Assembly (NCBI GenBank): GCA_964562105.1
Contig: CAZLRP010000002.1
Coordinates: forward strand, 19,222-83,221
Direction of reading: 5' to 3'
DNA length: 64,000 nucleotides
Source of the DNA: an uncultured Candidatus Saccharibacteria bacterium
Lineage (GTDB): Bacteria > Patescibacteriota > Minisyncoccia > Phycocordibacterales > GWA1-40-21
The position numbers were made by a program, and so were the translations under genes. Positions 12,796 through 53,137 of the stretch are shown here, one piece after another. Below the pieces are notes generated by a model. It had not been told where the DNA came from and searched no databases. It worked only from the letters and a program-made list of their open reading frames with translations. Position 1 is the stretch's first letter, and every line of letters starts with the position of its first letter.

Positions 12796-13497
12796 TTAAT
12801 TTGCTGACCAATCTTTGGCAGAAAGTGCGTTGTTTGCGGCAACTTGTTCTGCTTCTTGTTTTGATTTACCTTCACCTTCCGCAACTTTAGTTTTATCCAG
12901 ATATACGCCTACTGTAAACTTTTTATCGTGATCCGGGCCTTCTTCTTTTAATGTTTTATAAAGCGGCGTTATACCTTCATAATCCTGCGCCTGTTCTTGA
13001 AATTTGCTTTTTGCATCAAGCCATGTTTTTTCTTCAATTATTTTTTCTATCAGATTAAAGATGTTGTTTGAGATAAAATATTTTGCTACATCATATCCCT
13101 GATCCAAAAAAATCGCTCCGATCAAAGCCTCTATCGCATTTGCTAAAATAATCTGCCTTGCCCGTCCAACATCTTTAGCTTCGCCTTTTGAAAGCAATAA
13201 AAAATCATTCATATTTATTTTCCCCGCAGCATCCGAAAGAGTGTTCGCGTTGACAAGCGCAGATCTATAGGCAGTAAGCTCGCCTTCATTGCTGTCGGGA
13301 TATTTTACATAAAGATACTCGGTAACGATAAGTTCAAGCACGGCATCTCCTAAAAATTCCAATCTTTCGTTGTGAACCAACTCTGAATCTTTGTGTTCAT
13401 TCAAATAAGACCTGTGCGTAAAGGCTTGTTTTAATATATTTTTATCTTTAAAGATAATTCCTATTTTTTTTTCGAAGTTTGAAAAATCGGGTTTCAT
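12796..13497 (-). CDS. rnc: Ribonuclease III
   Basis: HRSY...NERLEFLGDAVLELIVTEYLY signature plus a C-terminal dsRBD (KSKFQEQAQ...GEGKSKQEAEQVAANNAL). Confidence 0.9.
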   Translation of the reverse strand: MKPDFSNFEKKIGIIFKDKNILKQAFTHRSYLNEHKDSELVHNERLEFLGDAVLELIVTEYLYVKYPDSNEGELTAYRSALVNANTLSDAAGKINMNDFLLLSKGEAKDVGRARQIILANAIEALIGAIFLDQGYDVAKYFISNNIFNLIEKIIEEKTWLDAKSKFQEQAQDYEGITPLYKTLKEEGPDHDKKFTVGVYLDKTKVAEGEGKSKQEAEQVAANNALSAKDWSAN

Positions 13498-13518
13498 AAA
13501 TTATGATTTATTATTTTT

Positions 13519-13655
13519 ATCCGCACACTAATTCTATCATCGTTGCATCGTGTTCTTAATATCAGTAAATATTATGTTGTTTATTAAGTAAGTTTAATTT
13601 TATATAACTAATCTCTCTGCGCAACAAAAACACAATGATAGAGTTAGTGTGCGGA
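13519..13655. repeat. Family-A palindromic element copy 1 (about 137 bp; termini CCGCACAC...GTGTGCGG with 35-nt arm complementarity)
   Basis: Left arm tccgcacactaattctatcatcgttgcatcgtgtt and right arm gcaacaaaaacacaatgatagagttagtgtgcgga. The right 35 nt are identical to the copy at 52862-53000. The element overlaps the last 4 codons and stop of the nusB-Nudix gene and ends 22 nt before the rnc start codon. Confidence 0.7.
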
Positions 13656-14543
13656 CTTGCTACTTATTATTGTTATAGCTTTTGTGATGATCGGCAATAT
13701 ATCATTATAAAAATTAAGGTTTTGAATTTCTTGAAGCTTGAACCATTTGGCATCATCAAGGCCTCCGCTGTCTCCGCGTTTTAATTCTGTTCTCTCGGCT
13801 TTTGCAAGAAAATATATCACCTGTTTTCTTATTTTTCCTTCTTCGGGATGATTTGCCACATATTCATTTTTTAAAAGTTCATCTTCAATCGTGATATCAA
13901 TACCCATTTCTTCTTTTATTTCCCTCACCGCTCCTATTTTTGGATCTTCGCCTGCATCTATCTTTCCTTTTGAAAGAGTCCACTTCCCAAAAACATCGTG
14001 AACGAGAGCAAAATAAATATTTCCGTCTTCAACACTATAGACCACAGCTCCCGCGAGTTGTTTTATCGGCATTTGCTCAAACGGAACATCTTTATGTTTT
14101 TTAGAAACTTCGTCTTTGCCTGGCTCTCCAAGCTCTTTGTATATAGTGCCCAAAACTCCATTTATAAAGCCTCCGCTCTTTTCTCCGCTGTAAGTTTTTG
14201 CAAGCTCAATAGCTTCGTTAATTGCAACTTTTGCCGGAACTTCTTTTCTATCAGAGAACAACAGCTCATAAAGCCCCAGACGCAAAATATTTCTGTCGGC
14301 GATAGAAATTTTTTCTATCGGCCAGTCAGGCGCAGCTTTTACAATAATACTGTCCAAATCCGTTTTTTTATCAATTATTCCTTTCAAAAGATTTTCGGAA
14401 AAATTTTTTTCTGCATTTCCCTCTCCAAATTCTTTATTATTTCTTTCTAGAGATAATAAAGCTTCTTCTCTTGAAGAATTTCTAAAATCCCACTCAAAAG
14501 CGGATTGAAATACTATTGATCTTGCAAGGTGCCTGCTAAACAT
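13644..14543 (-). CDS. nusB: NusB (antitermination factor)-Nudix hydrolase fusion protein
   Basis: N-terminal half is NusB-like (ARSIVFQSAFEWDF...VAINEAIELAKTYSGEKSGGFINGVLG). C-terminal half has a Nudix box (GKWTLSKGKIDAGEDPKIGAVREIKEEMG). Confidence 0.75.
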   Translation of the reverse strand: MFSRHLARSIVFQSAFEWDFRNSSREEALLSLERNNKEFGEGNAEKNFSENLLKGIIDKKTDLDSIIVKAAPDWPIEKISIADRNILRLGLYELLFSDRKEVPAKVAINEAIELAKTYSGEKSGGFINGVLGTIYKELGEPGKDEVSKKHKDVPFEQMPIKQLAGAVVYSVEDGNIYFALVHDVFGKWTLSKGKIDAGEDPKIGAVREIKEEMGIDITIEDELLKNEYVANHPEEGKIRKQVIYFLAKAERTELKRGDSGGLDDAKWFKLQEIQNLNFYNDILPIITKAITIISSKSAH

Positions 14544-21042: not shown

Positions 21043-21079
21043 AAACATACGAATATACAAATATTACTAATGGTACAAA

Positions 21080-21158
21080 TGGCTACAAATAATTAATTCG
21101 TTTCGAATTTATTCGTAGCCATTCGTATCATTCGCATAATTCGTTAATTCGTAATAAC
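21080..21158 (+). promoter_or_regulatory. ATTCGTA heptamer direct-repeat array (motif copy A) in the thrS 5' region
   Basis: attcgtt..attcgtagcc attcgtatc attcgcata attcgtta attcgtaa with about 9-10 bp spacing, plus a flanking near-IR ATGGCTACAAATAA / TTATTCGTAGCCAT. Homologous to 29404-29449 and 36193-36250. Confidence 0.55.
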
Positions 21159-21169
21159 ATCATAAAAAT

Positions 21170-22960
21170 ATGGAAAACGAAAAATTACACAGAATGAGAC
21201 ACTCGCTCGCCCACATACTTGGCGCAGCTGTTATCGAATTGTATCCTGATGTAAAAATAGCAACAGGTCCAGCAATTGAAAACGGTTTTTATTATGATTT
21301 TGATTTTTCCGCACCGATTACAGACAAAGACCTTGGAAAAATTGAGCAAAAAATACGTGAACTTTCAAAAAAAATAAAATCTTTTGATAAAGCAGAAATT
21401 TCGGAGAATGATGCAAAGAAACTTTTCGCAGACAATCCATATAAACTTGAGCTTATAGATGAATATGCAAAAGACGGAAAAACTCTTACTGCTTATACTT
21501 CGGGAGATTTTACAGACCTTTGCGCAGGCCCTCACGTAGAAAGTATGGATGAAATTAAAAATAGCGCTTGGAAACTTGAAAGGCTTGCCGGAGCATATTG
21601 GAAAGGAGATGAAAACAATAAAATGCTTACAAGAATTTACGGCTTAGCATTTCCAACAAAAGAAGAACTTGATGCATACGAAAAACAACAAGAAGAAGCT
21701 AAGAAAAGAGATCATAGAAAGCTTGGAAAAGATTTAGATCTTTTTCACATGGATGAAAAAGTTGGGCTCGGTCTCCCTTTATGGCATCCAAAAGGAGCTA
21801 TGCTATGGAGAATCATTGAAGATTTTTGGTATCAGGAGCATCTCAAAAATGACTACGATTTAGTAAGAAGCCCGCATATAGGTAAAAAAGAATTATGGGA
21901 AACATCAGGTCATTGGGGTTTTTATAATTCAAGCATGTATCCTCCGCTTGAAGCAGGACAAACATTGAAAGAAAAACAGGAAGGTAAAAAAATTGAACAT
22001 TCTGAGGAATACTTACTTAAACCAATGAATTGTCCTTTTCATGTTCAGATATATAAAAACAGTCCAAAATCCTACAGAGAATTCCCTTTCAGATGGGCAG
22101 AATGTGGAACGGTTTACAGATTTGAGAAAAAAGGTGAACTTTCCGGACTAACTAGAGTAAGAGGATTCACACAAGACGACGCACACATACTTTGTAGAAA
22201 AGATCAGGTTGAAGATGAATTAAAAAGAGTCATTGATTTTATTTTATTTATTTATAAATCTTTTGGTTTTGATATTAGTTCAGTAAAGGTATTTCTTTCT
22301 TTGAGAGATCCAAATAATAAAGAAAAATATGCCGGTAATGATGAAGGTTGGGATTTTACTGAAGAAGTTTTAAGAAAAGTTGCCATAGAGAAAAAACTTG
22401 ATTTTGCAGAAGAAAAAGGAGAAGCGGCATTTTATGGACCAAAACTTGATTTTAAAGTCAAAGATGCTCTAGGAAGATTGTGGCAATGTTCCACACTACA
22501 ATTTGATTTTAATTTGCCTGAAAGATTTGATCTAACATTCATGAATTCAAAAAGCGAACAAGAAAGACCATACATGCTTCATAGAGCTCTCTTTGGAAGC
22601 TTTGAAAGATTTATAGGACTACTCATTGAACATTATTCTGGTGCATTCCCTCTCTGGCTCGCACCCGTGCAAATAAAAATAGTTCCGATAAGAGAAAATC
22701 ATAACGAGCATGCAGAAAAAATTTCTAAGGAACTAAAAGATGCTGGGTTCAGAGTAGATTGCGATACAAAAGAAGGAAATATGGGAGGAAAAGTTCGCGA
22801 TGCAAAAAATAATAAAATTCCTTATACGATAATCATCGGAGACAAAGATATTGAAGCTAAAAAAATATCAGTGGAATCAAGAGATAAAGGACAGCTCGGT
22901 CAGATGGATTTGAAAGATTTTATTGAAAAGATTGAAAAAGAAAAGGAAAACAGAGAGTAA
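21170..22960 (+). CDS. thrS: Threonyl-tRNA synthetase (lacks N-terminal TGS domain)
   Basis: HSLAHILGAAV editing-domain start, class-II core (FRWAECGTVYRFE, GFTQDDAHI), C-terminal anticodon-binding domain. Confidence 0.9.
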   Translation: MENEKLHRMRHSLAHILGAAVIELYPDVKIATGPAIENGFYYDFDFSAPITDKDLGKIEQKIRELSKKIKSFDKAEISENDAKKLFADNPYKLELIDEYAKDGKTLTAYTSGDFTDLCAGPHVESMDEIKNSAWKLERLAGAYWKGDENNKMLTRIYGLAFPTKEELDAYEKQQEEAKKRDHRKLGKDLDLFHMDEKVGLGLPLWHPKGAMLWRIIEDFWYQEHLKNDYDLVRSPHIGKKELWETSGHWGFYNSSMYPPLEAGQTLKEKQEGKKIEHSEEYLLKPMNCPFHVQIYKNSPKSYREFPFRWAECGTVYRFEKKGELSGLTRVRGFTQDDAHILCRKDQVEDELKRVIDFILFIYKSFGFDISSVKVFLSLRDPNNKEKYAGNDEGWDFTEEVLRKVAIEKKLDFAEEKGEAAFYGPKLDFKVKDALGRLWQCSTLQFDFNLPERFDLTFMNSKSEQERPYMLHRALFGSFERFIGLLIEHYSGAFPLWLAPVQIKIVPIRENHNEHAEKISKELKDAGFRVDCDTKEGNMGGKVRDAKNNKIPYTIIIGDKDIEAKKISVESRDKGQLGQMDLKDFIEKIEKEKENRE

Positions 22961-23008
22961 AAAAGGCGGTTCTGCGCAGCTTTATGCGAAGCAGAACCGC
23001 CTTTTTTA
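22961..23008. terminator. Intrinsic terminator ggcggttctgcgcagctttatgcgaagcagaaccgcc (near-identical copy at 24858-24894)
   Basis: 11-bp GC-rich stem flanked by A-run and T-run, after the thrS stop. Confidence 0.7.
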
Positions 23009-23016
23009 TTACTTTT

Positions 23017-24813: not shown

Positions 24814-24852
24814 AAATAGAAGGTAGAATATAGGATATAGAAAATATAAATA

Positions 24853-24900
24853 CAAAAGGCGGTTCTGCGTAGCTTTATGCGAAGCAGAACCGCCTTTTGT
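24853..24900. terminator. Intrinsic terminator ggcggttctgcgtagctttatgcgaagcagaaccgcc (1-nt variant of the 22965-23001 hairpin)
   Basis: Between convergent genes 23773..24813(+) and gyrB(-). Confidence 0.7.
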
Positions 24901-24942
24901 ATTTTGCATTGAATTTCCTATCTTCTACCTTTTACATTCTGT

Positions 24943-29378: not shown

Positions 29379-29403
29379 GATTGATCTGGTATTTAAATTT
29401 AAT

Positions 29404-29449
29404 TATTTGTAGCCATTTGTATCATTCGAATAATTTGTATATTCGTATG
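29404..29449 (+). promoter_or_regulatory. ATTCGTA/ATTTGTA heptamer array (motif copy B) between pheS and pheT
   Basis: ttatttgtagccatttgtatcattcgaataatttgtatattcgtatg. Same order and orientation on the + strand as copy A. Confidence 0.5.
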
Positions 29450-29456
29450 TTCATCT

Positions 29457-30221: not shown

Positions 30222-30268
30222 AACCCCAATTATACAGAATTTTTACCTTTTTGCATCATATATGTTGT

Positions 30269-30339
30269 GCCATTCCCGTGAAAACGGAAATCTAGATTGA
30301 ATTAAATTAATTTTGGATTCCCGTTTTCACGGGAATGGC
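30269..30339. repeat. Family-B REP-like palindromic element copy 1 (GCCATTCCCG...CGGGAATGGC)
   Basis: Outer IR plus two internal ATTCCCG-loop-CGGGAAT hairpins and the shared core AATCTAGATTGAATTAAATTAATTTTGGATTCCC. Confidence 0.7.
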
Positions 30340-30345
30340 AGATGT

Positions 30346-36192: not shown

Positions 36193-36250
36193 TTACGAAT
36201 TATTATACTAATATACGAATTTATGCGAATGATACGAATGGCTACAAATA
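36193..36250 (-). promoter_or_regulatory. ATTCGTA heptamer array (motif copy C) abutting the rpmE start codon
   Basis: Reverse complement reads tttgtagccattcgtatcattcgcataaattcgtatattagtataataattcgtaac-ATG, nearly identical to copy A upstream of thrS. Confidence 0.55.
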
Positions 36251-36371
36251 TACACCATACGAACTATTCAGATGCAAGAATAGTACATTATTTTATAAAA
36301 AATACAAGAGCGGTTTTGGCTTCGCCAAAACCGCTCTTGTATTTTTTATTTTTCCTAAAAACTAGGACCTA

Positions 36372-37742: not shown

Positions 37743-37785
37743 AGTTATATTTTACTACATTTTATGGAGAAAAAACAGACATAAA

Positions 37786-37832
37786 TAATACAAACTAAAA
37801 AGGATTTTGCTTCGCGAAATCCTTTTTAGTTT
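37786..37832. other. Perfect 18-bp-stem hairpin (acaaactaaaaaggattt-tgcttcgcg-aaatcctttttagtttgt)
   Basis: Intergenic between gene 36372..37742 and rplY. Flanked further out by the imperfect IR cccccacaccattt / aaatggtgaggggg. Confidence 0.5.
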
Positions 37833-37970
37833 GTATTATTTCTTTTCTTCCCCCACACCATTTTCAAAGAATAAATATTATTATTTAATATTAAGATTTA
37901 TATGAAAAATATATTTTTGTCTTTATTATTCACATGTAAAAATGGTGAGGGGGCTGCGACAAAAAATTAA

Positions 37971-37994
37971 AAAATGCCCGAAAGGGCATTTTTT
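37971..37994 (-). terminator. Terminator aaaatgccc-gaaa-gggcatttt overlapping the rplY stop
   Basis: 9-bp stem with T-runs on both sides. Confidence 0.6.
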
Positions 37995-38682
37995 AATTTT
38001 TTGTCTCCGCTTTCTTTGGGGTTGCTTCTGGAGTTGCGGCTGCACCTTCTTCTCCCACTTCGCCTTCTTTAGCTTCCTTACCTTTCTTTTCTACTTCAAT
38101 TGCAGAAAGATCTACTGGAGCCACTTCTACAACTTCTTCTTTTGGTTCATATACTGAAGCAACTACATCTTCCGGCTTAACTTTTAACAAAACTCCTTCA
38201 GGAAGTTTTATTTTATCAGCTGTAATAACACTATCAAATGTTGCTAAGCTTGAAATATCTACTTCCAGCTTGTGAGGCAAATCTTTTGGCAAAGCTTCAA
38301 TTTCAACTTCGTGCATAACTTTTACGAGAATTCCTCCAAGATCTTTTACAGCCGGAGCAACTCCGATAAATTCAAGTGGAATTTTTATTTCAAGTTTCTT
38401 TCCTTTTTCAATAGCATAAAAATCAGCATGTCTTGGTTTGTCTGTAACAGGATCCAAATCCACATCTTTTATCAAAACATCAACATCAATGTCTTTCCCA
38501 TCAAGGTGTAATATTGTTGATTCTCCGGCTTCTTTTAGTGTTTTTTCAAAAATTGCATAAGGAAGCTGAATTGGAGTTGAAACTTCTTTTTTCCCATAAA
38601 AAACAGCCGGCATTTTTCCCGCTTTTCTGATTTCTGATAAGCTTTCTTTTAGACTTCTTTTTTCTACAGCTAATGTAATCAT
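37993..38682 (-). CDS. rplY: 50S ribosomal protein L25 / general stress protein Ctc, with acidic C-terminal extension
   Basis: ITLAVEKR...GKMPAVFYGK...ILHLDGKDIDVDVLIKDV. Confidence 0.8.
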   Translation of the reverse strand: MITLAVEKRSLKESLSEIRKAGKMPAVFYGKKEVSTPIQLPYAIFEKTLKEAGESTILHLDGKDIDVDVLIKDVDLDPVTDKPRHADFYAIEKGKKLEIKIPLEFIGVAPAVKDLGGILVKVMHEVEIEALPKDLPHKLEVDISSLATFDSVITADKIKLPEGVLLKVKPEDVVASVYEPKEEVVEVAPVDLSAIEVEKKGKEAKEGEVGEEGAAATPEATPKKAETKN

Positions 38683-40443: not shown

Positions 40444-40445
40444 AT

Positions 40446-40591
40446 TATTTACCCGAGAAAATTTTTGCCAATAAAAATTGTTTGTTTGACTTAATAACTT
40501 ACATCTATTATATCACATGACATAACAAAATTTGTACGTAGTAGAAACAACTAATTTTTAACAAACATTGGCAAAAACTTTAACGGGTGAA
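40446..40591 (-). repeat. Family-C TIR cassette copy (reverse orientation) abutting the fba start codon
   Basis: Ends atttacccgagaaaatttttgccaa (40446-) and ttggcaaaaactttaacgggtgaac (-40591). In gene sense the proximal end reads ...gcaaaaattttctcgggtaaataat-ATG. Confidence 0.65.
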
Positions 40592-40609
40592 CAAGTTTTA
40601 GAAATTTAA

Positions 40610-41293: not shown

Positions 41294-41305
41294 AATTTTT
41301 TAATT

Positions 41306-41376
41306 GTCATTCCCGTGCAGACGGGAATCCAGAATTAGTTTAATACAACCTAGATTCCCGCATCCGCGGGAATGAC
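41306..41376. repeat. Family-B REP-like element copy 2 (inverted core orientation), 12 bp upstream of the SET-gene start
   Basis: gtcattcccgtgcagacgggaatccagaattagtttaatacaacctagattcccgcatccgcgggaatgac. Confidence 0.7.
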
Positions 41377-41381
41377 ACACA

Positions 41382-42854: not shown

Positions 42855-42967
42855 AATTAAAATAAAATTATTAATTTATACAGTTAATTATATCTTTTCT
42901 ATTTATGTATGGCAATGTTTTACAAGACAGAGTAAAAATTCACACGGAACAGGTATTCTGCTATACT

Positions 42968-43107
42968 TGACCCGTTAAAGTTTTTGCTGATGTGTTGAAA
43001 ATGAGAAGAAAAATAATTATCTTTTTTAAAGATAGTTTCTAGTAAAAATTTTATTTAATCGTTTAACATCAACACATTTTTGTCAGCAAAAATTTTCTCG
43101 GGTAAAT
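42968..43107 (+). repeat. Family-C TIR cassette copy abutting the asnB start codon
   Basis: Left end tgacccgttaaagtttttgctga and right end tcagcaaaaattttctcgggtaaat are mutual inverted repeats. Contains an internal palindrome atcttttttaaagat and a TTGTCA-17-TAAATT promoter-like pair at the proximal end. Confidence 0.65.
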
Positions 43108-43110
43108 TTT

Positions 43111-44970
43111 ATGTGTGGAATTGCCGGGACTGTGAGTCCCGAAATAAAAGAAAAAGATAGTGTTATACGAGAAATGATTTCTCGCATTTTTCATCGTGGA
43201 CCAGATGATGACGGTTTTTTTGTGGACGAGAATATTGCTTTGGGTATGCGCAGATTGTCTATAATAGATATTTCTACCGGTAAACAACCTATATGGTCGC
43301 AAGATAAAAAGAAAGTTATATTTTTTAATGGTGAAATTTATAATTATCTCGAACTCCGTAAAGAATTGATTTCAAAAGGCCATATTTTTGATACACATGG
43401 CGACACAGAAGTTATCTTGCACATGTATGAAGAATATGGAGAAAAAATGCTTACCCAGCTACGAGGTATGTTTGCATTTTGCATATATGACAAAGAAAGC
43501 AAAGCTGTTTTTCTGGCACGAGATTTTTTCGGAATAAAACCGCTTTATTATCTTAAAGATGCCGAAAAAATAGTTGCGTTCTCGTCTGAAATAAAAAGTT
43601 TTTTGTCTTACCCAGGATTCAAAACCGTGGTCAATGATTCAGCTGTCTACAATTATTTATCATTCCAATACAATCCACTTCCCGAAACTTTTTTCAAATC
43701 CGTTTATAAGCTTCCTCCTGCCCACTGCATGAAAATTGACTTAAAAAATGGAAGCGTGGAAATTAAAAAATATTGGTCATACGAAATTAAGCCAGATGAA
43801 AATTTGGAAGAGATTGAGACCACAAAAAAAATCCACGAAACTATACGAGATTCAGTAGAACATCACATGATTGCAGATGTTCCCGTCGGCTCTTTTCTTT
43901 CTGGCGGAATTGACAGTAGTATTATTGCCACGATGATGCAGGAAATCCGTGGAGGCAACCCCAGTCAAATAAAAAGCCAATTTGACGGGGCAAGAAAAAT
44001 TAAAACTTTTACAGTTGGTTTTGATACACTAACAGAAGGCGTAGAATCAAAAGAAACATCAGATTTTCTTGGCACAGATCATACAGAAATAAAAATCGGG
44101 CCTGAAGAATATTTTAATATTCTTCCAAAAGCCGTATATCACTTTGATGAGCCCGTCGCCGATCCTTCCGCTATTGGGCTTTATTTTGTAGCCCGTGAAG
44201 CAAAAAAACATGTCAAAGTTGTACTTTCTGGTGAGGGGGCTGATGAACTTTTCGGCGGATATAATATATATCTTGCACCTTTTGCTTACAAAAAAATATC
44301 TTGGATTCCTAAAAGCTTTTTGAAAATAATTTTAAAAATACCATTTGAATTTTTTGGAAAAAACTATATTCGCCGCGCGAGCGACTTGCTTTCAAACTGG
44401 TATGTAGGCAACGCTTCAATATTTAAAGATTTTGAGCGAGATTTGTTGTGGAAAAAACAAGTTGAACAAAAATATTCCCTTTCGCCATTTTATGAACATG
44501 TAAAAAATTTGAGTGATTCTACGCAAATGCAATATATTGATGTTTCTACTTGGCTCATTGGAGACATCCTGGCAAAAGCTGATAAAATGACAATGGCAAA
44601 TTCATTGGAGCTTCGCGTGCCTTTTTTGGATAAGAAAGTTTCAGATTTGGCCTCCACTTTGCCAGATAAATTTAAATGGCGTAAAGGCGTGACTAAATAC
44701 CTTTTGCGAGAGGCATTTAAGAATGTAATCCCCGAGAGCACCCGCAATAGAAAAAAGCTTGGTTTTCCAACACCAATTCGCGATTGGTTCACCGAAGACA
44801 GACAAGATTTATACCAGAAAATATACGACTGTAAATACATAAGAGAGCATATGAATGTTGAATATATTAAAAAAATTGTGGAAGATCATATAAATAAAAA
44901 AATCGATAACTCCAGAAAAATATATTTACTTTTAATGCTCGCTTTGTGGTTTGAGGTATTTGTTAAATAA
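43111..44970 (+). CDS. asnB: Asparagine synthase (glutamine-hydrolysing)
   Basis: MCGIAG N-terminal nucleophile, SGGIDSS PP-loop. Confidence 0.9.
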   Translation: MCGIAGTVSPEIKEKDSVIREMISRIFHRGPDDDGFFVDENIALGMRRLSIIDISTGKQPIWSQDKKKVIFFNGEIYNYLELRKELISKGHIFDTHGDTEVILHMYEEYGEKMLTQLRGMFAFCIYDKESKAVFLARDFFGIKPLYYLKDAEKIVAFSSEIKSFLSYPGFKTVVNDSAVYNYLSFQYNPLPETFFKSVYKLPPAHCMKIDLKNGSVEIKKYWSYEIKPDENLEEIETTKKIHETIRDSVEHHMIADVPVGSFLSGGIDSSIIATMMQEIRGGNPSQIKSQFDGARKIKTFTVGFDTLTEGVESKETSDFLGTDHTEIKIGPEEYFNILPKAVYHFDEPVADPSAIGLYFVAREAKKHVKVVLSGEGADELFGGYNIYLAPFAYKKISWIPKSFLKIILKIPFEFFGKNYIRRASDLLSNWYVGNASIFKDFERDLLWKKQVEQKYSLSPFYEHVKNLSDSTQMQYIDVSTWLIGDILAKADKMTMANSLELRVPFLDKKVSDLASTLPDKFKWRKGVTKYLLREAFKNVIPESTRNRKKLGFPTPIRDWFTEDRQDLYQKIYDCKYIREHMNVEYIKKIVEDHINKKIDNSRKIYLLLMLALWFEVFVK

Positions 44971-45610: not shown

Positions 45611-45617
45611 TGGTATG

Positions 45618-45849
45618 TTTACCCGTTAAAGTTTTTACTAACGCATTTTTGTCTTTACAAATAAAGTTAAGTAGACTAGATTAAATAAAACATAATTATC
45701 TGAATAGTCTTGCTGTGTTTAAAATGACAAAAATGCAAAAAAGTTAGTTTTGAGTTAAGATATTACTTGTAATATAAATGTTTGATAAATTAAGTAAGTT
45801 AGATATAGTCACTACTAACTTTTTTATTAGTAAAAATTTTTTCGGGTAA
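45618..45849 (+). repeat. Family-C TIR cassette copy (about 232 bp) abutting and overlapping the mraY start codon
   Basis: Left end tttacccgttaaagtttttactaa and right end ttagtaaaaattttttcgggtaaat(g)ATG. Confidence 0.65.
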
Positions 45850-46899
45850 ATGATGATCAACGCTTTAAAAGTCGTAATTCCCTCTGTTTTAACATTCTTT
45901 TTGGGTATTTTAATAACGCCTTTTTTCACCAATTTTTTCTACAAATACAAAATGTGGAAGAAATCTTCACGAACAGAAGCCGGCACTACGGAAGAATTTG
46001 CAAAAGTACATAACACAAAAGGTGAGCTTTCCACTCCCCGAGTCGGTGGAGTAATTATATGGGTATCGGTATTGCTTACAATCGGCATAATATATCTGCT
46101 TTCAATTCTTTTTCCGACAGATCTGACTGAAAAATTAAATTTCCTCAGTCGCAACCAAACACTTGTGCCTCTTGTCGCATTTATATTTGCATCTTTAATT
46201 GGACTCGCAGATGACATGTTGCAAATAATGGGAAAAGGCAGTTATGCAAAAGACAGTTTAATCTACAGAAAAATAAAAATAATCGTTGTAACGCTTATCG
46301 GCTTGATTATCGGTTTTTGGTTTTATAATAAACTTGAAGTAAGTTCTATTTATATGCCTTTTCTTGGAGATATAAATCTTGGCTTGTGGTTTATTCCATT
46401 TTTCATTACAGTTATGTTAGCCACATTTTCAACTAGCGTTATTGATGGAATTGACGGACTTTCAGGAGGGGTGCTAACAAGCGCTTTTACCGCATATGCA
46501 ATTATAGCTTTTGCAAACAATCAGATAGATATAGCTGCTTTTTGTGCCGTCATTGCAGGTGGAACATTAGCCTTCCTTTGGTTTAATATTCCTCCGGCTA
46601 GATTTTATATGGGAGAAACGGGAATACTTGGTCTTACCATTGTACTTTCTGTAATTGCTTTTATGACTGATGCAGTCGTAGTTCTTCCTATCATCGCTTT
46701 ACCTTTGGTTTTGACATCCGCTTCGGTCATTATACAAATGATTTCTTATAAATATTATAAGCGCAGAGTTTTTCGCGTAGCTCCACTGCATCATCACCTT
46801 GAAGCAATCGGCTGGTCAAAAGAAAAAGTTGTGATGCGTTATTGGATAGTCAGTGCTGTTTTTGCAATAATCGGAGTGATTGTAGCTCTCGTAAGCTAA
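45850..46899 (+). CDS. mraY: Phospho-N-acetylmuramoyl-pentapeptide transferase
   Basis: 10-TM protein with LADDMLQ and VAPLHHHLE motifs. Confidence 0.85.
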   Translation: MMINALKVVIPSVLTFFLGILITPFFTNFFYKYKMWKKSSRTEAGTTEEFAKVHNTKGELSTPRVGGVIIWVSVLLTIGIIYLLSILFPTDLTEKLNFLSRNQTLVPLVAFIFASLIGLADDMLQIMGKGSYAKDSLIYRKIKIIVVTLIGLIIGFWFYNKLEVSSIYMPFLGDINLGLWFIPFFITVMLATFSTSVIDGIDGLSGGVLTSAFTAYAIIAFANNQIDIAAFCAVIAGGTLAFLWFNIPPARFYMGETGILGLTIVLSVIAFMTDAVVVLPIIALPLVLTSASVIIQMISYKYYKRRVFRVAPLHHHLEAIGWSKEKVVMRYWIVSAVFAIIGVIVALVS

Positions 46900-49083: not shown

Positions 49084-49094
49084 ATTTGTTTTGT

Positions 49095-49162
49095 GTCATT
49101 CCCGTGTAAACGGGAATCTAGGTTGAATTTTAATAATGGATTCCCGCATTCGCGGGAATGAC
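49095..49162. repeat. Family-B REP-like element copy 4, 11 bp upstream of the gatB start codon
   Basis: gtcattcccgtgtaaacgggaatctaggttgaattttaataatggattcccgcattcgcgggaatgac. Confidence 0.7.
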
Positions 49163-49290
49163 AATACAAAAATACAAATAAATAATAGCATAAAAATTAT
49201 AAAATGAGCTTCATTTTTATCCTTGACAAAAGATTTATAATGAGGTACAATTCACAAGTAGCTAAATTTGTTCTTCAAAAGGAGAAAAAC

Positions 49291-49488: not shown

Positions 49489-49522
49489 AGCGGTATCTTT
49501 TATGAGGAGATGCCGCTTTTTT
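49489..49522 (+). terminator. Intrinsic terminator agcggtatc-ttttatgaggag-atgccgct + T6 (identical copy at 50011-50046)
   Basis: 9-bp stem including one G-T pair, followed by a T-run. Confidence 0.65.
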
Positions 49523-49616
49523 AATTACATTTTTATCCATTTTTACAACTTGATAATACAATTATAATAATGTAGAGTTTTGCTAGATAGTTATATTTTA
49601 ACAAAGGAGGTATTTT

Positions 49617-50010: not shown

Positions 50011-50046
50011 AGCGGTATCTTTTATGAGGAGATGCCGCTTTTTTTA
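50011..50046 (+). terminator. Intrinsic terminator, exact duplicate of 49489-49522
   Basis: aagcggtatcttttatgaggagatgccgctttttttatt. Confidence 0.65.
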
Positions 50047-50055
50047 TTGTACACT

Positions 50056-50126
50056 GTCATTCCCGCGGAGGCGGGAATCTAGGTTGAATTAAATTAATTC
50101 TGGATTCCCGCCTGCACGGGAATGAC
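50056..50126. repeat. Family-B REP-like element copy 5 (most complete)
   Basis: gtcattcccgcggaggcgggaatctaggttgaattaaattaattctggattcccgcctgcacgggaatgac. Just 3' of the obg stop. Confidence 0.7.
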
Positions 50127-50133
50127 ACACGAT

Positions 50134-51543: not shown

Positions 51544-52455
51544 TCAACTTTGTACTTTATAACTTGCAAGCGCGAGCTTCGCGAGCGCGATTGCTCCCTC
51601 TTTTGACTTTGCCACGGCGACGAATCTGTCATTATGACAAAAAATTGCGCCTGAAACTCCTGTTATTTTTTCCAAATCTCCGTCTCTTTTTCCAGACCAA
51701 CTTTCTGGAAAATATATTCTTCTTTCAAATTTTGCATCAATTTTTACAACAGCTTCAACGCTCCAAGTCTTATTTGGTTTTGGAGATATTACAAAAAGCG
51801 GCTCAGAATAACTAACAACAGTTTTTTTCCATGAATAATTGTCATCTAAAATAATAATTCGCTTATCTTCAGTTTTTTTATATATGTCCCGAACAATTTC
51901 AATAGCAATATAATTATCTTTTGCACGTTTTATTTCTCTTAAAAGCATTTTTTTAACTTCTTTCACAGCAAATAAGAATGATTTTAAATGATCTCCCTTT
52001 TCTCTCCATGTAGGGTTAAGTGCATGCACATAATCAAAAAAAGAATATGGCGATATTTTTTCGAAAATATTTTTATATATTTCTACACCACTATCTTCAG
52101 CATCTACTGGTTGAATTATTTTTTCATCAATTTTATCTGCTATTTCTTGAGAGTCAGCTATTTTTTCTCCATACTCTTTCCATACTAGACCGCTAGTGGC
52201 ATAAGGAATGCCATTTCCCCTTTTTTTATTCCAACCTTCCTCATGATGATCAAACTTATTTGTTTTTGGATTATATTCTCCTCCGACATCCAGAACGAAA
52301 TCCATATCTGATAAAATTTTCTTATTTCTTGTCCTAAAAATTTTTAATGGTTTTTTTAAATATAAAGATAAAATCGCTACAGAAAATACATCGTCCGGGT
52401 GAAACCTTCCGTCATGAACCGCGACTTTTATTTTTTTACTTTTTCGTAATGTCAT
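51544..52455 (-). CDS. MYG1/UPF0160-family metal-dependent hydrolase
   Basis: VAVHDGRFHPDDVFSVAIL resembles the MYG1 GTHxGxFHxDE motif. Confidence 0.6.
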   Translation of the reverse strand: MTLRKSKKIKVAVHDGRFHPDDVFSVAILSLYLKKPLKIFRTRNKKILSDMDFVLDVGGEYNPKTNKFDHHEEGWNKKRGNGIPYATSGLVWKEYGEKIADSQEIADKIDEKIIQPVDAEDSGVEIYKNIFEKISPYSFFDYVHALNPTWREKGDHLKSFLFAVKEVKKMLLREIKRAKDNYIAIEIVRDIYKKTEDKRIIILDDNYSWKKTVVSYSEPLFVISPKPNKTWSVEAVVKIDAKFERRIYFPESWSGKRDGDLEKITGVSGAIFCHNDRFVAVAKSKEGAIALAKLALASYKVQS

Positions 52456-52852
52456 CTCTGATTTCTTCTATATCCTTTGAAATATGATCTATCTTAACCC
52501 TGACATTTGTGATTTCTTCTTCCTCTTTAGCTACCTCGGCTTCAGTTTTATCTGTTACTTTTTTTTCTTTTTTAATTCCAGAAATAATAACTCTTTCTCC
52601 AATAAGGTTTGATACAAAAAGACCTGTCATAAGTAAGATGAGCGAAGACCAAATTACTGTAACCGGTTCATAAAAAAACCAACCCAAAAAACCACCCCTT
52701 GCCATTAAAATATCGGCTGTATGCCATATTCCTCTCCATAAAAGAATAGTCCCCATCCCACCGACAAATGCGTATATTATTGATCTGTGGCTCAACCTTA
52801 TTCTTACTCTATCTTCAAGCTTGTCAAAATAACTTACTATCGATTTAAACAT
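52436..52852 (-). CDS. Small membrane protein with C-terminal coiled coil
   Basis: Two TM helices followed by a KE-rich helix. Confidence 0.4.
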   Translation of the reverse strand: MFKSIVSYFDKLEDRVRIRLSHRSIIYAFVGGMGTILLWRGIWHTADILMARGGFLGWFFYEPVTVIWSSLILLMTGLFVSNLIGERVIISGIKKEKKVTDKTEAEVAKEEEEITNVRVKIDHISKDIEEIRDDITKK

Positions 52853-52861
52853 ATGAATCTT

Positions 52862-53000
52862 GTCCGCACACCAACTCTATCATCGTTACATTGTGTTTAC
52901 AGTATCATTAAACGTCAACTTTTATTTACTAAGAAAATTTGCTTTTATTTTACAAATCTCCTTTAGCAACAAAAACACAATGATAGAGTTAGTGTGCGGA
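52862..53000. repeat. Family-A palindromic element copy 2 (about 139 bp)
   Basis: Left arm tccgcacaccaactctatcatcgttacattgtgtt; right 35 nt identical to copy 1. Ends about 10 nt before the start codon of gene 52436..52852. Confidence 0.7.
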
Positions 53001-53137
53001 TTAATTAAATTTAATAATGTAAGCATTATACACTAAAAACAATTAAAAAAAATGAGCTGTTTGTGAGTACACAACAGCCCAATGCAAAAGTATCAAAAGA
53101 TAGAAATATCGTTAAAAATCAACAGTTTTTATGATTC

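Follow-up and report, generated by a model that had tools for sequence, protein, structure and literature searches.

A probable MITE family of Paceibacteria with hairpin-forming copies beside the RNase III gene

Background

In the stretch of DNA analyzed here (64,000 nt, below called the window), the RNase III gene rnc is separated from the preceding nusB-Nudix fusion gene by a long palindromic sequence, and a second copy of this sequence stands upstream of a membrane protein gene. A stem in front of the RNase III gene raises the question of whether it is a regulatory RNA structure of rnc or a mobile element. The original prediction allowed for both, as it suggested an RNase III processing or autoregulatory site or, alternatively, a co-opted MITE-like element. 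The rnc gene of E. coli is under feedback control via a structure residing in its 5' UTR (PMC5371410).

Structure of the element

The existence of a palindromic element in two copies is confirmed, with refined limits (Table 1) and a chance expectation of 0. Both window copies, here assigned to family A, have the termini TCCGCACAC...GTGTGCGGA on the sense (minus) strand. The general outline of the family on this strand is 5' TCCGCACACTAACTCTATCATTGTGTTTTTGTTGC … AT-rich interior … AACAC(G/A)ATG(C/T)AACGATGATAGA(A/G)TT(A/G)GTGTGCGGA 3'. The arm 21-mer, searched for with at most one mismatch, has four matches in the 64-kb window, and these are the four arms; with up to three mismatches a 21-nt arm probe still retrieves exactly the same four, the expectation from shuffled sequences being 0 in both searches. 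The elements are 132-139 nt long and have no coding capacity, as they contain only spurious ORFs running out of an arm.

The arms at 13621-13655 and 52966-53000 are identical (35/35), and the other pair of arms matches at 31 of 35 positions, exactly as in the original prediction. The minus strand of copy 1 folds with -43.1 kcal/mol (z -7.8) and that of copy 2 with -56.4 kcal/mol (z -8.9), and in neither case was any of 200 shuffles as good; thus both copies form the long hairpins that had been anticipated. The arms do pair in inverted orientation, but the proposed clean stem of about 35 bp is not observed: the continuous stem comprises 22 bp, in which position 13 is usually mismatched, and is extended by 5-6 pairs beyond an 8-nt bulge. 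In other words, the terminal inverted repeats of about 22 bp are perfect or nearly so, and continue imperfectly to about 35 nt. In the alignment of all seven copies described below, 96% of cells of the 22-bp stem are paired, and 16 pairs are invariant. The arms themselves are not self-complementary.

No U-tract follows the stem on its 3' side, where UAAAAAU or CAAGAU is found instead, and no intrinsic terminator was called by the scan. Consensus scans for promoters and terminators at both window loci yielded no more sites than in shuffles, and an outward promoter within family A is not supported. Family A has no match in Rfam at the gathering score, the sole match in the window being tRNA-Thr. 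A permissive Rfam search gives for family A only plant miRNA precursor hairpins with 23-24 bits against cut-offs of 85-100, and Rfam found nothing in L002 and L010, two loci considered below. The blastn matches to plasmids and phages were confined to the AT-rich interior and were due to chance.

Table 1. Features of the two family A loci in the window and of the family A ends
Feature	Position	Strand	Comment
rnc (RNase III, 233 aa; catalytic domain and dsRBD)	12796..13497	minus	flanking gene, outside the element
TAAA directly 3' of copy 1 (sense)	13516..13519	minus	intact half of the target-site duplication
Family A copy 1	13520-13655 (136 nt)	minus	140.9 bits with covariance model R1; collinear with L012 (filled) and L004 (empty)
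Copy 1, sense 3' terminal inverted repeat	13520..13554	minus	…AACACGATGCAACGATGATAGAATTAGTGTGCGGA
Copy 1, sense 5' terminal inverted repeat	13621..13655	minus	TCCGCACACTAACTCTATCATTGTGTTTTTGTTGC; first 12 nt encode S-A-H-stop of nusB-Nudix
nusB-Nudix fusion (299 aa)	13644..14543	minus	native last codons replaced by element sequence
Membrane protein gene (138 aa, no Pfam family)	52436..52852	minus	downstream of copy 2
Family A copy 2	52863-53000 (138 nt)	minus	137.8 bits with the covariance model; leader of the 138-aa membrane protein gene
Extended -10 promoter-like box TGTATAAT	53025..53032	minus	24 nt upstream of copy 2; conserved in relative L013
Terminator-like hairpin with U8 tail ending the 97-aa ORF transcript	53044..53081	minus	hairpin 53053-53081, T8 53044-51; -15.3 kcal/mol, z -3.9
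Bounding sequence of family A ends			TCCGCACACTAA…

Genomic context of the two copies

Both copies stand close to a start codon, copy 1 at 22 nt from that of rnc and copy 2 at 10 nt from the ATG of the membrane protein gene, and these distances agree with those given originally. Location directly after the preceding cistron was correct for copy 1, which overlaps the end of nusB-Nudix, but not for copy 2, as the 97-aa ORF upstream of it ends 137 nt away. Copy 1 provides the end of the nusB-Nudix reading frame, TCC GCA CAC TAA, that is, three sense codons (S-A-H) and the stop codon, and not four codons and a stop. Among the 120 nearest NusB-NUDIX proteins the C-terminal SAH was observed in two, the protein of the window itself and P0203, encoded by locus L010. 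A screen of the fetched proteins for the N-terminal tag MIELVCG or the C-terminal tags SAH/SEH identified, beyond the window, P0203 only.

The nearest named homologues of the flanking genes come from MAGs of Candidatus Paceibacterota / Patescibacteria. Hundreds of Paceibacteria contigs share a NusB-NUDIX fusion of about 298-305 aa, at >70% identity, with rnc as the gene immediately downstream; the combination of these domains in one protein is unusual. A MYG1-family protein is among the annotated neighbours across both window loci. As copy 1 lies inside the nusB-Nudix-rnc operon, which is tightly packed in relatives, it is probably transcribed, and the likely transcript is that of the operon itself.

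Copy 2 is separated from the 97-aa ORF by the terminator-like hairpin and the TGTATAAT box, and thus it belongs to a 5' leader and is not intercistronic. The consensus promoter scan, which needs a -35 box, missed this candidate promoter, and it was found by sequence comparison. Since the conserved -10 box lies upstream, copy 2 is probably transcribed as leader RNA.

Empty and filled sites

Two closely related loci, L004 and L012, are 96.5% identical in nusB-Nudix and 94.9% identical in rnc on the DNA level, the window being about 83% identical to either. The sole difference between their junctions is a single block, the 135-nt element plus TAAA, present in L012 and missing in L004. The empty junction of L004 reads …AGCAGTAAAAATGATAAGTAAAATATTTTATG. 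In the filled junction of L012, …AGCAGTAAA is followed by the element, TCCGAACAC…GTGTGCGGA, and then by TAAAAATGATAAGTAAAATATTCTATG. One A may be assigned either to the element or to the duplication, and thus the target-site duplication is 3-4 bp long, TAA(A). On the sequence level, the target-site duplication of family A is established by this empty site in a relative. The insertion occurred within the nusB-Nudix reading frame and replaced the native tail by in-frame S-A/E-H-stop: the protein ends with …SSKNDK in the empty allele L004 and with …SSKSEH in the filled allele L012.

The flanks TAAA/TAAA of L012 recur in two further loci, L002 and L015, in which the stop codon of rnc provides the left TAA. 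A copy named L010a is flanked by TTTA/TTTG. The duplications are degenerate at three of six independent flanks, those of copy 1 (CAAG/TAAA), copy 2 (TTAA/CAAG) and L010b (CACA/TAAA), and those of copy 2 and L010b are not recognisable. In copy 1 the 5' half, CAAG at 13656-13659, encodes Ser-Lys and is two synonymous changes away from the duplicate.

One could regard family A as a vertically inherited structured RNA, a regulatory leader of two genes that was duplicated in the genome and is not mobile. The strong fold z-scores and the positions just upstream of start codons are what such a leader would have. However, the orthologous sites in near relatives are empty, and cleanly so, family A also occurs at other, non-homologous sites, its interior is not conserved, and it has no match in Rfam. 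This reading is contradicted by the comparison of empty and filled sites and is extremely unlikely.

Distribution of family A

When 185,579 species genomes were scanned for exact matches to a degenerate 21-mer, one locus was recovered, and the same scan of the JGI metagenomes also yielded one. The genomic match, L001, comes from the same contig as L012 and has family A at the junction occupied by copy 1. In the metagenomic match, L002, family A directly follows the rnc stop codon, and hence the site is other than that of copy 1. The contig containing L001 and L012 (JAGVNG010000018.1) is titled 'Nanoarchaeota archaeon isolate DeMMO3_40'. It encodes bacterial NusB-NUDIX, RNase III, SMC, L32, S16 and TrmD, and its identity with the Paceibacteria-type contig of L004 is 95-96%; the MAG is probably mis-binned or mislabelled.

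The rnc neighbourhoods of close relatives were retrieved via their proteins. Five of the eight fetched rnc loci do not contain family A anywhere, and the nusB-Nudix/rnc junction is free of it in L004, L006, L008, L014, L015 and L002. The spacers at this junction are 8 nt in L004, 16 nt in L015 and 24 nt in L008, with no stem; those of L014, L006 and L002 are 82-110 nt long and unrelated in sequence. In L015 a copy follows rnc and occupies the site known from L002. Two copies, L010a and L010b, are found within 4.9 kb in L010. The site of L010b is the end of nusB-Nudix. The other copy, L010a (L010 3422-3561), has on its upstream side the terminator of a Nudix gene, a strong hairpin (-24.4 kcal/mol, z -7.8), and on its downstream side the rpmF (L32) promoter-like sequence TTGCTT…TGTATACT. 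As it lies in the gap between a terminator and a promoter, it is probably untranscribed. L015 has no insert in the orthologous gap.

Profile and covariance model searches of about 145 kb of the relatives' DNA identified new copies only in L015 and L010, and the covariance model applied to 209 kb recovered exactly the seven known copies. No family A was found in 41 kb of the closest sampled genome (L013 and L014). The copies occupy at least four sites: the 3' end of nusB-Nudix (window, L012, L010b), the 3' end of rnc (L002, L015), the L010a gap and the leader containing copy 2. Two copies are visible in the 64-kb window and one or two in each fetched region. In three Logan contigs, L003, L010 and L011, a contig end falls within family A, as happens when an assembler meets a repeat.

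Identity between the copies is 74-100% in the arms and 40-73% in the interiors. The copies fall into two groups that follow the host lineages: both window copies cluster with L012, and L002, L015, L010a and L010b form the second group. The interiors of copy 1 and L012 are 58% identical, and these copies may derive from one common insertion or from two. The orientation relative to the flanking genes is the same in all seven.

In the 22-bp stem, double changes preserving the pairing occur in one copy each, from A-U to G-C in L015 and from C-G to A-U in L010b, and RNAalifold adds a lineage-level change of G-C to A-U. However, the shuffle control with seven sequences is weak, as the observed value was reached in 31 of 500 shuffles, and the changes are suggestive only. 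Further, the strand asymmetry of the folds (G-U pairs in sense versus antisense), which would be a sign of selection at the RNA level, is inconsistent, the sense strand being better in three copies and not in the other four. Template switching inside quasi-palindromes is a known mutational route to pairing-preserving changes. Thus the compensatory changes in the stem could be caused by selection for the hairpin or by template switching.

The combination of conserved arms and a variable interior had originally been ascribed to selection on the stem. This explanation is not needed, since ends recognised by a transposase produce conserved arms and a free interior.

Copies at rnc

Each element-bearing genome seen has a copy touching rnc, and these copies come from at least three separate insertions. 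The only match of the unbiased metagenome scan, L002, also adjoins rnc, at a site different from that of copy 1. On the other hand, the search that revealed L015, L010a and L010b was directed at the surroundings of rnc, and hence their location is biased. The clustering possibly reflects ascertainment, or local hopping or a preference for TAA(A) targets at gene ends, or selection for RNase III feedback. The latter is an improbable cause.

In the feedback scenario, family A would be a co-opted MITE whose rnc-flanking copies are retained as RNase III substrates and exert negative feedback on the rnc mRNA. The possible routes are cleavage of the leader (window, L012, L010b) and removal of a protective 3' hairpin (L002, L015), and through copy 2 a further gene would come under RNase III control. 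The 22-bp stem with its extension is, by general knowledge, long enough for RNase III, and the host enzyme has both the catalytic and the dsRNA-binding domain. The sense orientation of all copies, two single-copy and one lineage-level compensatory changes in the stem and the repeated insertion next to rnc, including that of L002, also speak for it. There are parallels: Correia elements (CREE/nemis) of Neisseria form hairpins that are bound or cleaved by RNase III, which alters expression of neighbouring genes (PMC2649163; PMC10969869), and E. coli rnc controls its own expression through cleavage of a structure in its 5' UTR (PMC5371410). However, most close relatives have no element at the rnc junction, where they keep spacers of 8-24 nt, and thus rnc in this clade does not need the element. 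Moreover, L010a is probably untranscribed, the sense fold has no consistent advantage over the antisense one (three versus four copies), the covariation control is weak, the location of three copies is biased by the search, and local hopping of a transposon would cluster the copies as well. Retention of family A for feedback on rnc is therefore considered unlikely.

The stronger claim, that the element is a conserved autoregulatory leader of rnc, was rejected. The stem is absent from the junction in six relatives, among them L004, L015 and L008 with their short spacers, and the tag is present in 2 of the 120 homologues and absent in 118. As there is no conserved stem at the homologous loci, and the duplications are of the MITE type, the regulatory reading of the original prediction is not upheld. 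A tempting false lead, a conserved regulatory RNA of rnc, is thus removed.

A more general suggestion is that the rnc flanks are repeatedly colonised by hairpins, and that in very small genomes a MITE has repeatedly been domesticated as an autoregulatory operator. A dsRNA stem on the rnc transcript would then let RNase III control its own level. The suggestion is based on family A, which precedes rnc in three genomes and follows it in two, and on the unrelated moderate hairpins in the long spacers of L014 and L002; it is unlikely.

Two of the three long nusB-Nudix/rnc spacers, unrelated in sequence, fold moderately (L014 10901-10982, z -2.6; L002 899-1007, z -2.3; 3/200 shuffles as good). The spacer of L006 gives no fold signal (z -0.55), and none of these three spacers is repeated in the fetched DNA. 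This is a weak hint at a tendency of the rnc leader to contain stems.

Origin and possible effects of family A

Taken together, these data make it very probable that family A is a MITE, a non-autonomous DNA transposon of about 135 bp. The element is small, lacks an ORF, and has terminal inverted repeats, a target duplication, copies at multiple loci and presence/absence polymorphism. Thus the second suggestion of the original prediction, a MITE-like element, is strongly supported by the filled and empty sites with the duplication, the patchy distribution, the occurrence at several sites and the assembly breaks at the arms. As a MITE family of Paceibacteria, family A had not been described before. 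The presence of other short terminal-inverted-repeat or palindromic families in the window means that the genome is permissive for such elements.

Several observations count against the MITE reading, namely the low visible copy number, the degeneracy of three of six flanks and the failure to find an autonomous partner in the scans. Exact-pattern scans for such a partner gave one match in the genome collection, one in the metagenome collection and none in the viral collection, all of them MITE copies; diverged repeats would escape these scans. Random insertion does not predict the uniform orientation, nor that most of the seven copies lie at most 2.5 kb from rnc. Similarly, transposase recognition alone does not predict the pairing-preserving double changes at three arm positions.

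The mode of mobilisation could in principle be different. Instead of a MITE of the TIR/DDE type, family A could be an element of the REP/REPIN type, mobilised by RAYT (Y1 transposase) acting on single-stranded hairpins. Indeed, it is a small palindromic extragenic repeat, all its copies have one orientation, and a REPIN-like family is present in the same window (30268, 41305, 49094, 50055). However, individual arms of family A are not palindromic, and the target duplication is present, whereas none is expected upon REP/REPIN mobilisation; no RAYT gene came to notice. We consider this origin very unlikely.

The proposed mechanism for the MITE is as follows. A DDE-type transposase, which is postulated and was not found, would act in trans, recognising the repeats and making a staggered cut at TAA(A). 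The insertions themselves, at AT-rich sites at gene ends in a few lineages of one Paceibacteria clade, are established, as is the polymorphism between near-identical genomes. The window copies, which we infer to be co-transcribed with their neighbours, would form a stable hairpin of 22-28 bp located 10-22 nt before the start codon. Such a hairpin may be cut by RNase III or may hinder initiation; by analogy with the Correia elements, RNase III could plausibly act on the 22-bp stem once it is transcribed. Either effect would be a side-effect of the insertion and not the raison d'être of the element.

Comparison with known elements

The closest parallel in structure and possible action is provided by the Correia elements. 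They are also about 100-155 bp long, lack an ORF, and have terminal inverted repeats and a short duplication of the target; they are inserted next to gene ends or into them, and are polymorphic between strains. They are the best model for the possible action of the window copies on the neighbouring genes. However, the Correia target is TA (or CA), and the repeat is 26 bp (PMC2649163), whereas family A has the target TAA(A) and the termini TCCGCACAC…, and no sequence relationship between the two was noticed. Further, Correia elements are present in >100 copies per genome and have an IHF site and outward promoters, compared with one or two family A copies per fetched region. Finally, the hosts are Neisseria, a proteobacterium, in one case and Paceibacteria (CPR) in the other.

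Family A shares all structural hallmarks of other bacterial MITEs such as MITEAba12, RUP, ERIC and Nezha (PMC10969869). It differs in that no parent insertion sequence was found for it, and in that it is absent from Rfam and from the phage and plasmid collections searched.

Rickettsia palindromic elements (RPEs) are inserted in-frame within ORFs, and translation covers their whole length. Family A resembles them as a palindrome within a coding region that adds in-frame residues, in this case S-A/E-H and a stop. The difference is that only three codons of family A are used, because its codon 4 is a stop, and that the other copies are intergenic.

The E. coli rnc leader is similar to copy 1, L012 and L010b in that a stable stem-loop stands directly upstream of rnc in the same transcript. 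In contrast to it, the family A stem is a recent intercistronic insertion that is missing in most relatives and is also found at unrelated genes.

The usual description of the tiny genomes of the Candidate Phyla Radiation is that they contain little mobile DNA. A full-text literature search retrieved no paper on MITEs in these bacteria. Family A documents in them a clean MITE family with both an empty and a filled site. It demonstrates that insertion of a MITE can rewrite the C-terminus of a protein and put a 22-bp dsRNA stem before the RNase III gene, and provides a concrete test case for MITE hairpins as RNase III substrates outside Neisseria.

Other repeats in the window

A REPIN-like element, separate from family A, is present in four copies (30268-30340, 41305-41377, 49094-49163 and 50055-50127) that are 73-95% alike. 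Each copy consists of two inverted, self-palindromic units (TGTCATTCCCGYG-N4-CGGGAATC) about 20 nt apart. A third family, probably another MITE family, has three copies of 150-235 bp within 5.4 kb (40445-40594, 42962-43111 and 45616-45850), with inverted repeats TTTACCCG(A/T)(G/T)AAARTTTTTGC….

A single 104-bp palindrome at 37850-37953, CCCCCACACCATTTT…AAAATGGTGAGGGGG, is located between terminator-like hairpins at 37783-37841 and 37953-38010. It is a weak match to the family A covariance model (32 bits, E about 0.002), and its termini are faintly similar to those of family A (CCNCACAC).

The 53-nt repeats at 21044-21096, 29399-29451 and 36221-36266 (AACATACGAATATACAAATATTACTAATGGTACAAATGGCTACAAATAATTAA) are 85-91% complementary or identical and lie 7-15 kb apart. 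In addition, terminator-like hairpins with GC stems and T tails are duplicated at 22958-23010 and 24851-24903, and at 49489-49526 and 50011-50048; the members of these pairs are 94-97% identical and 0.5-1.9 kb apart.
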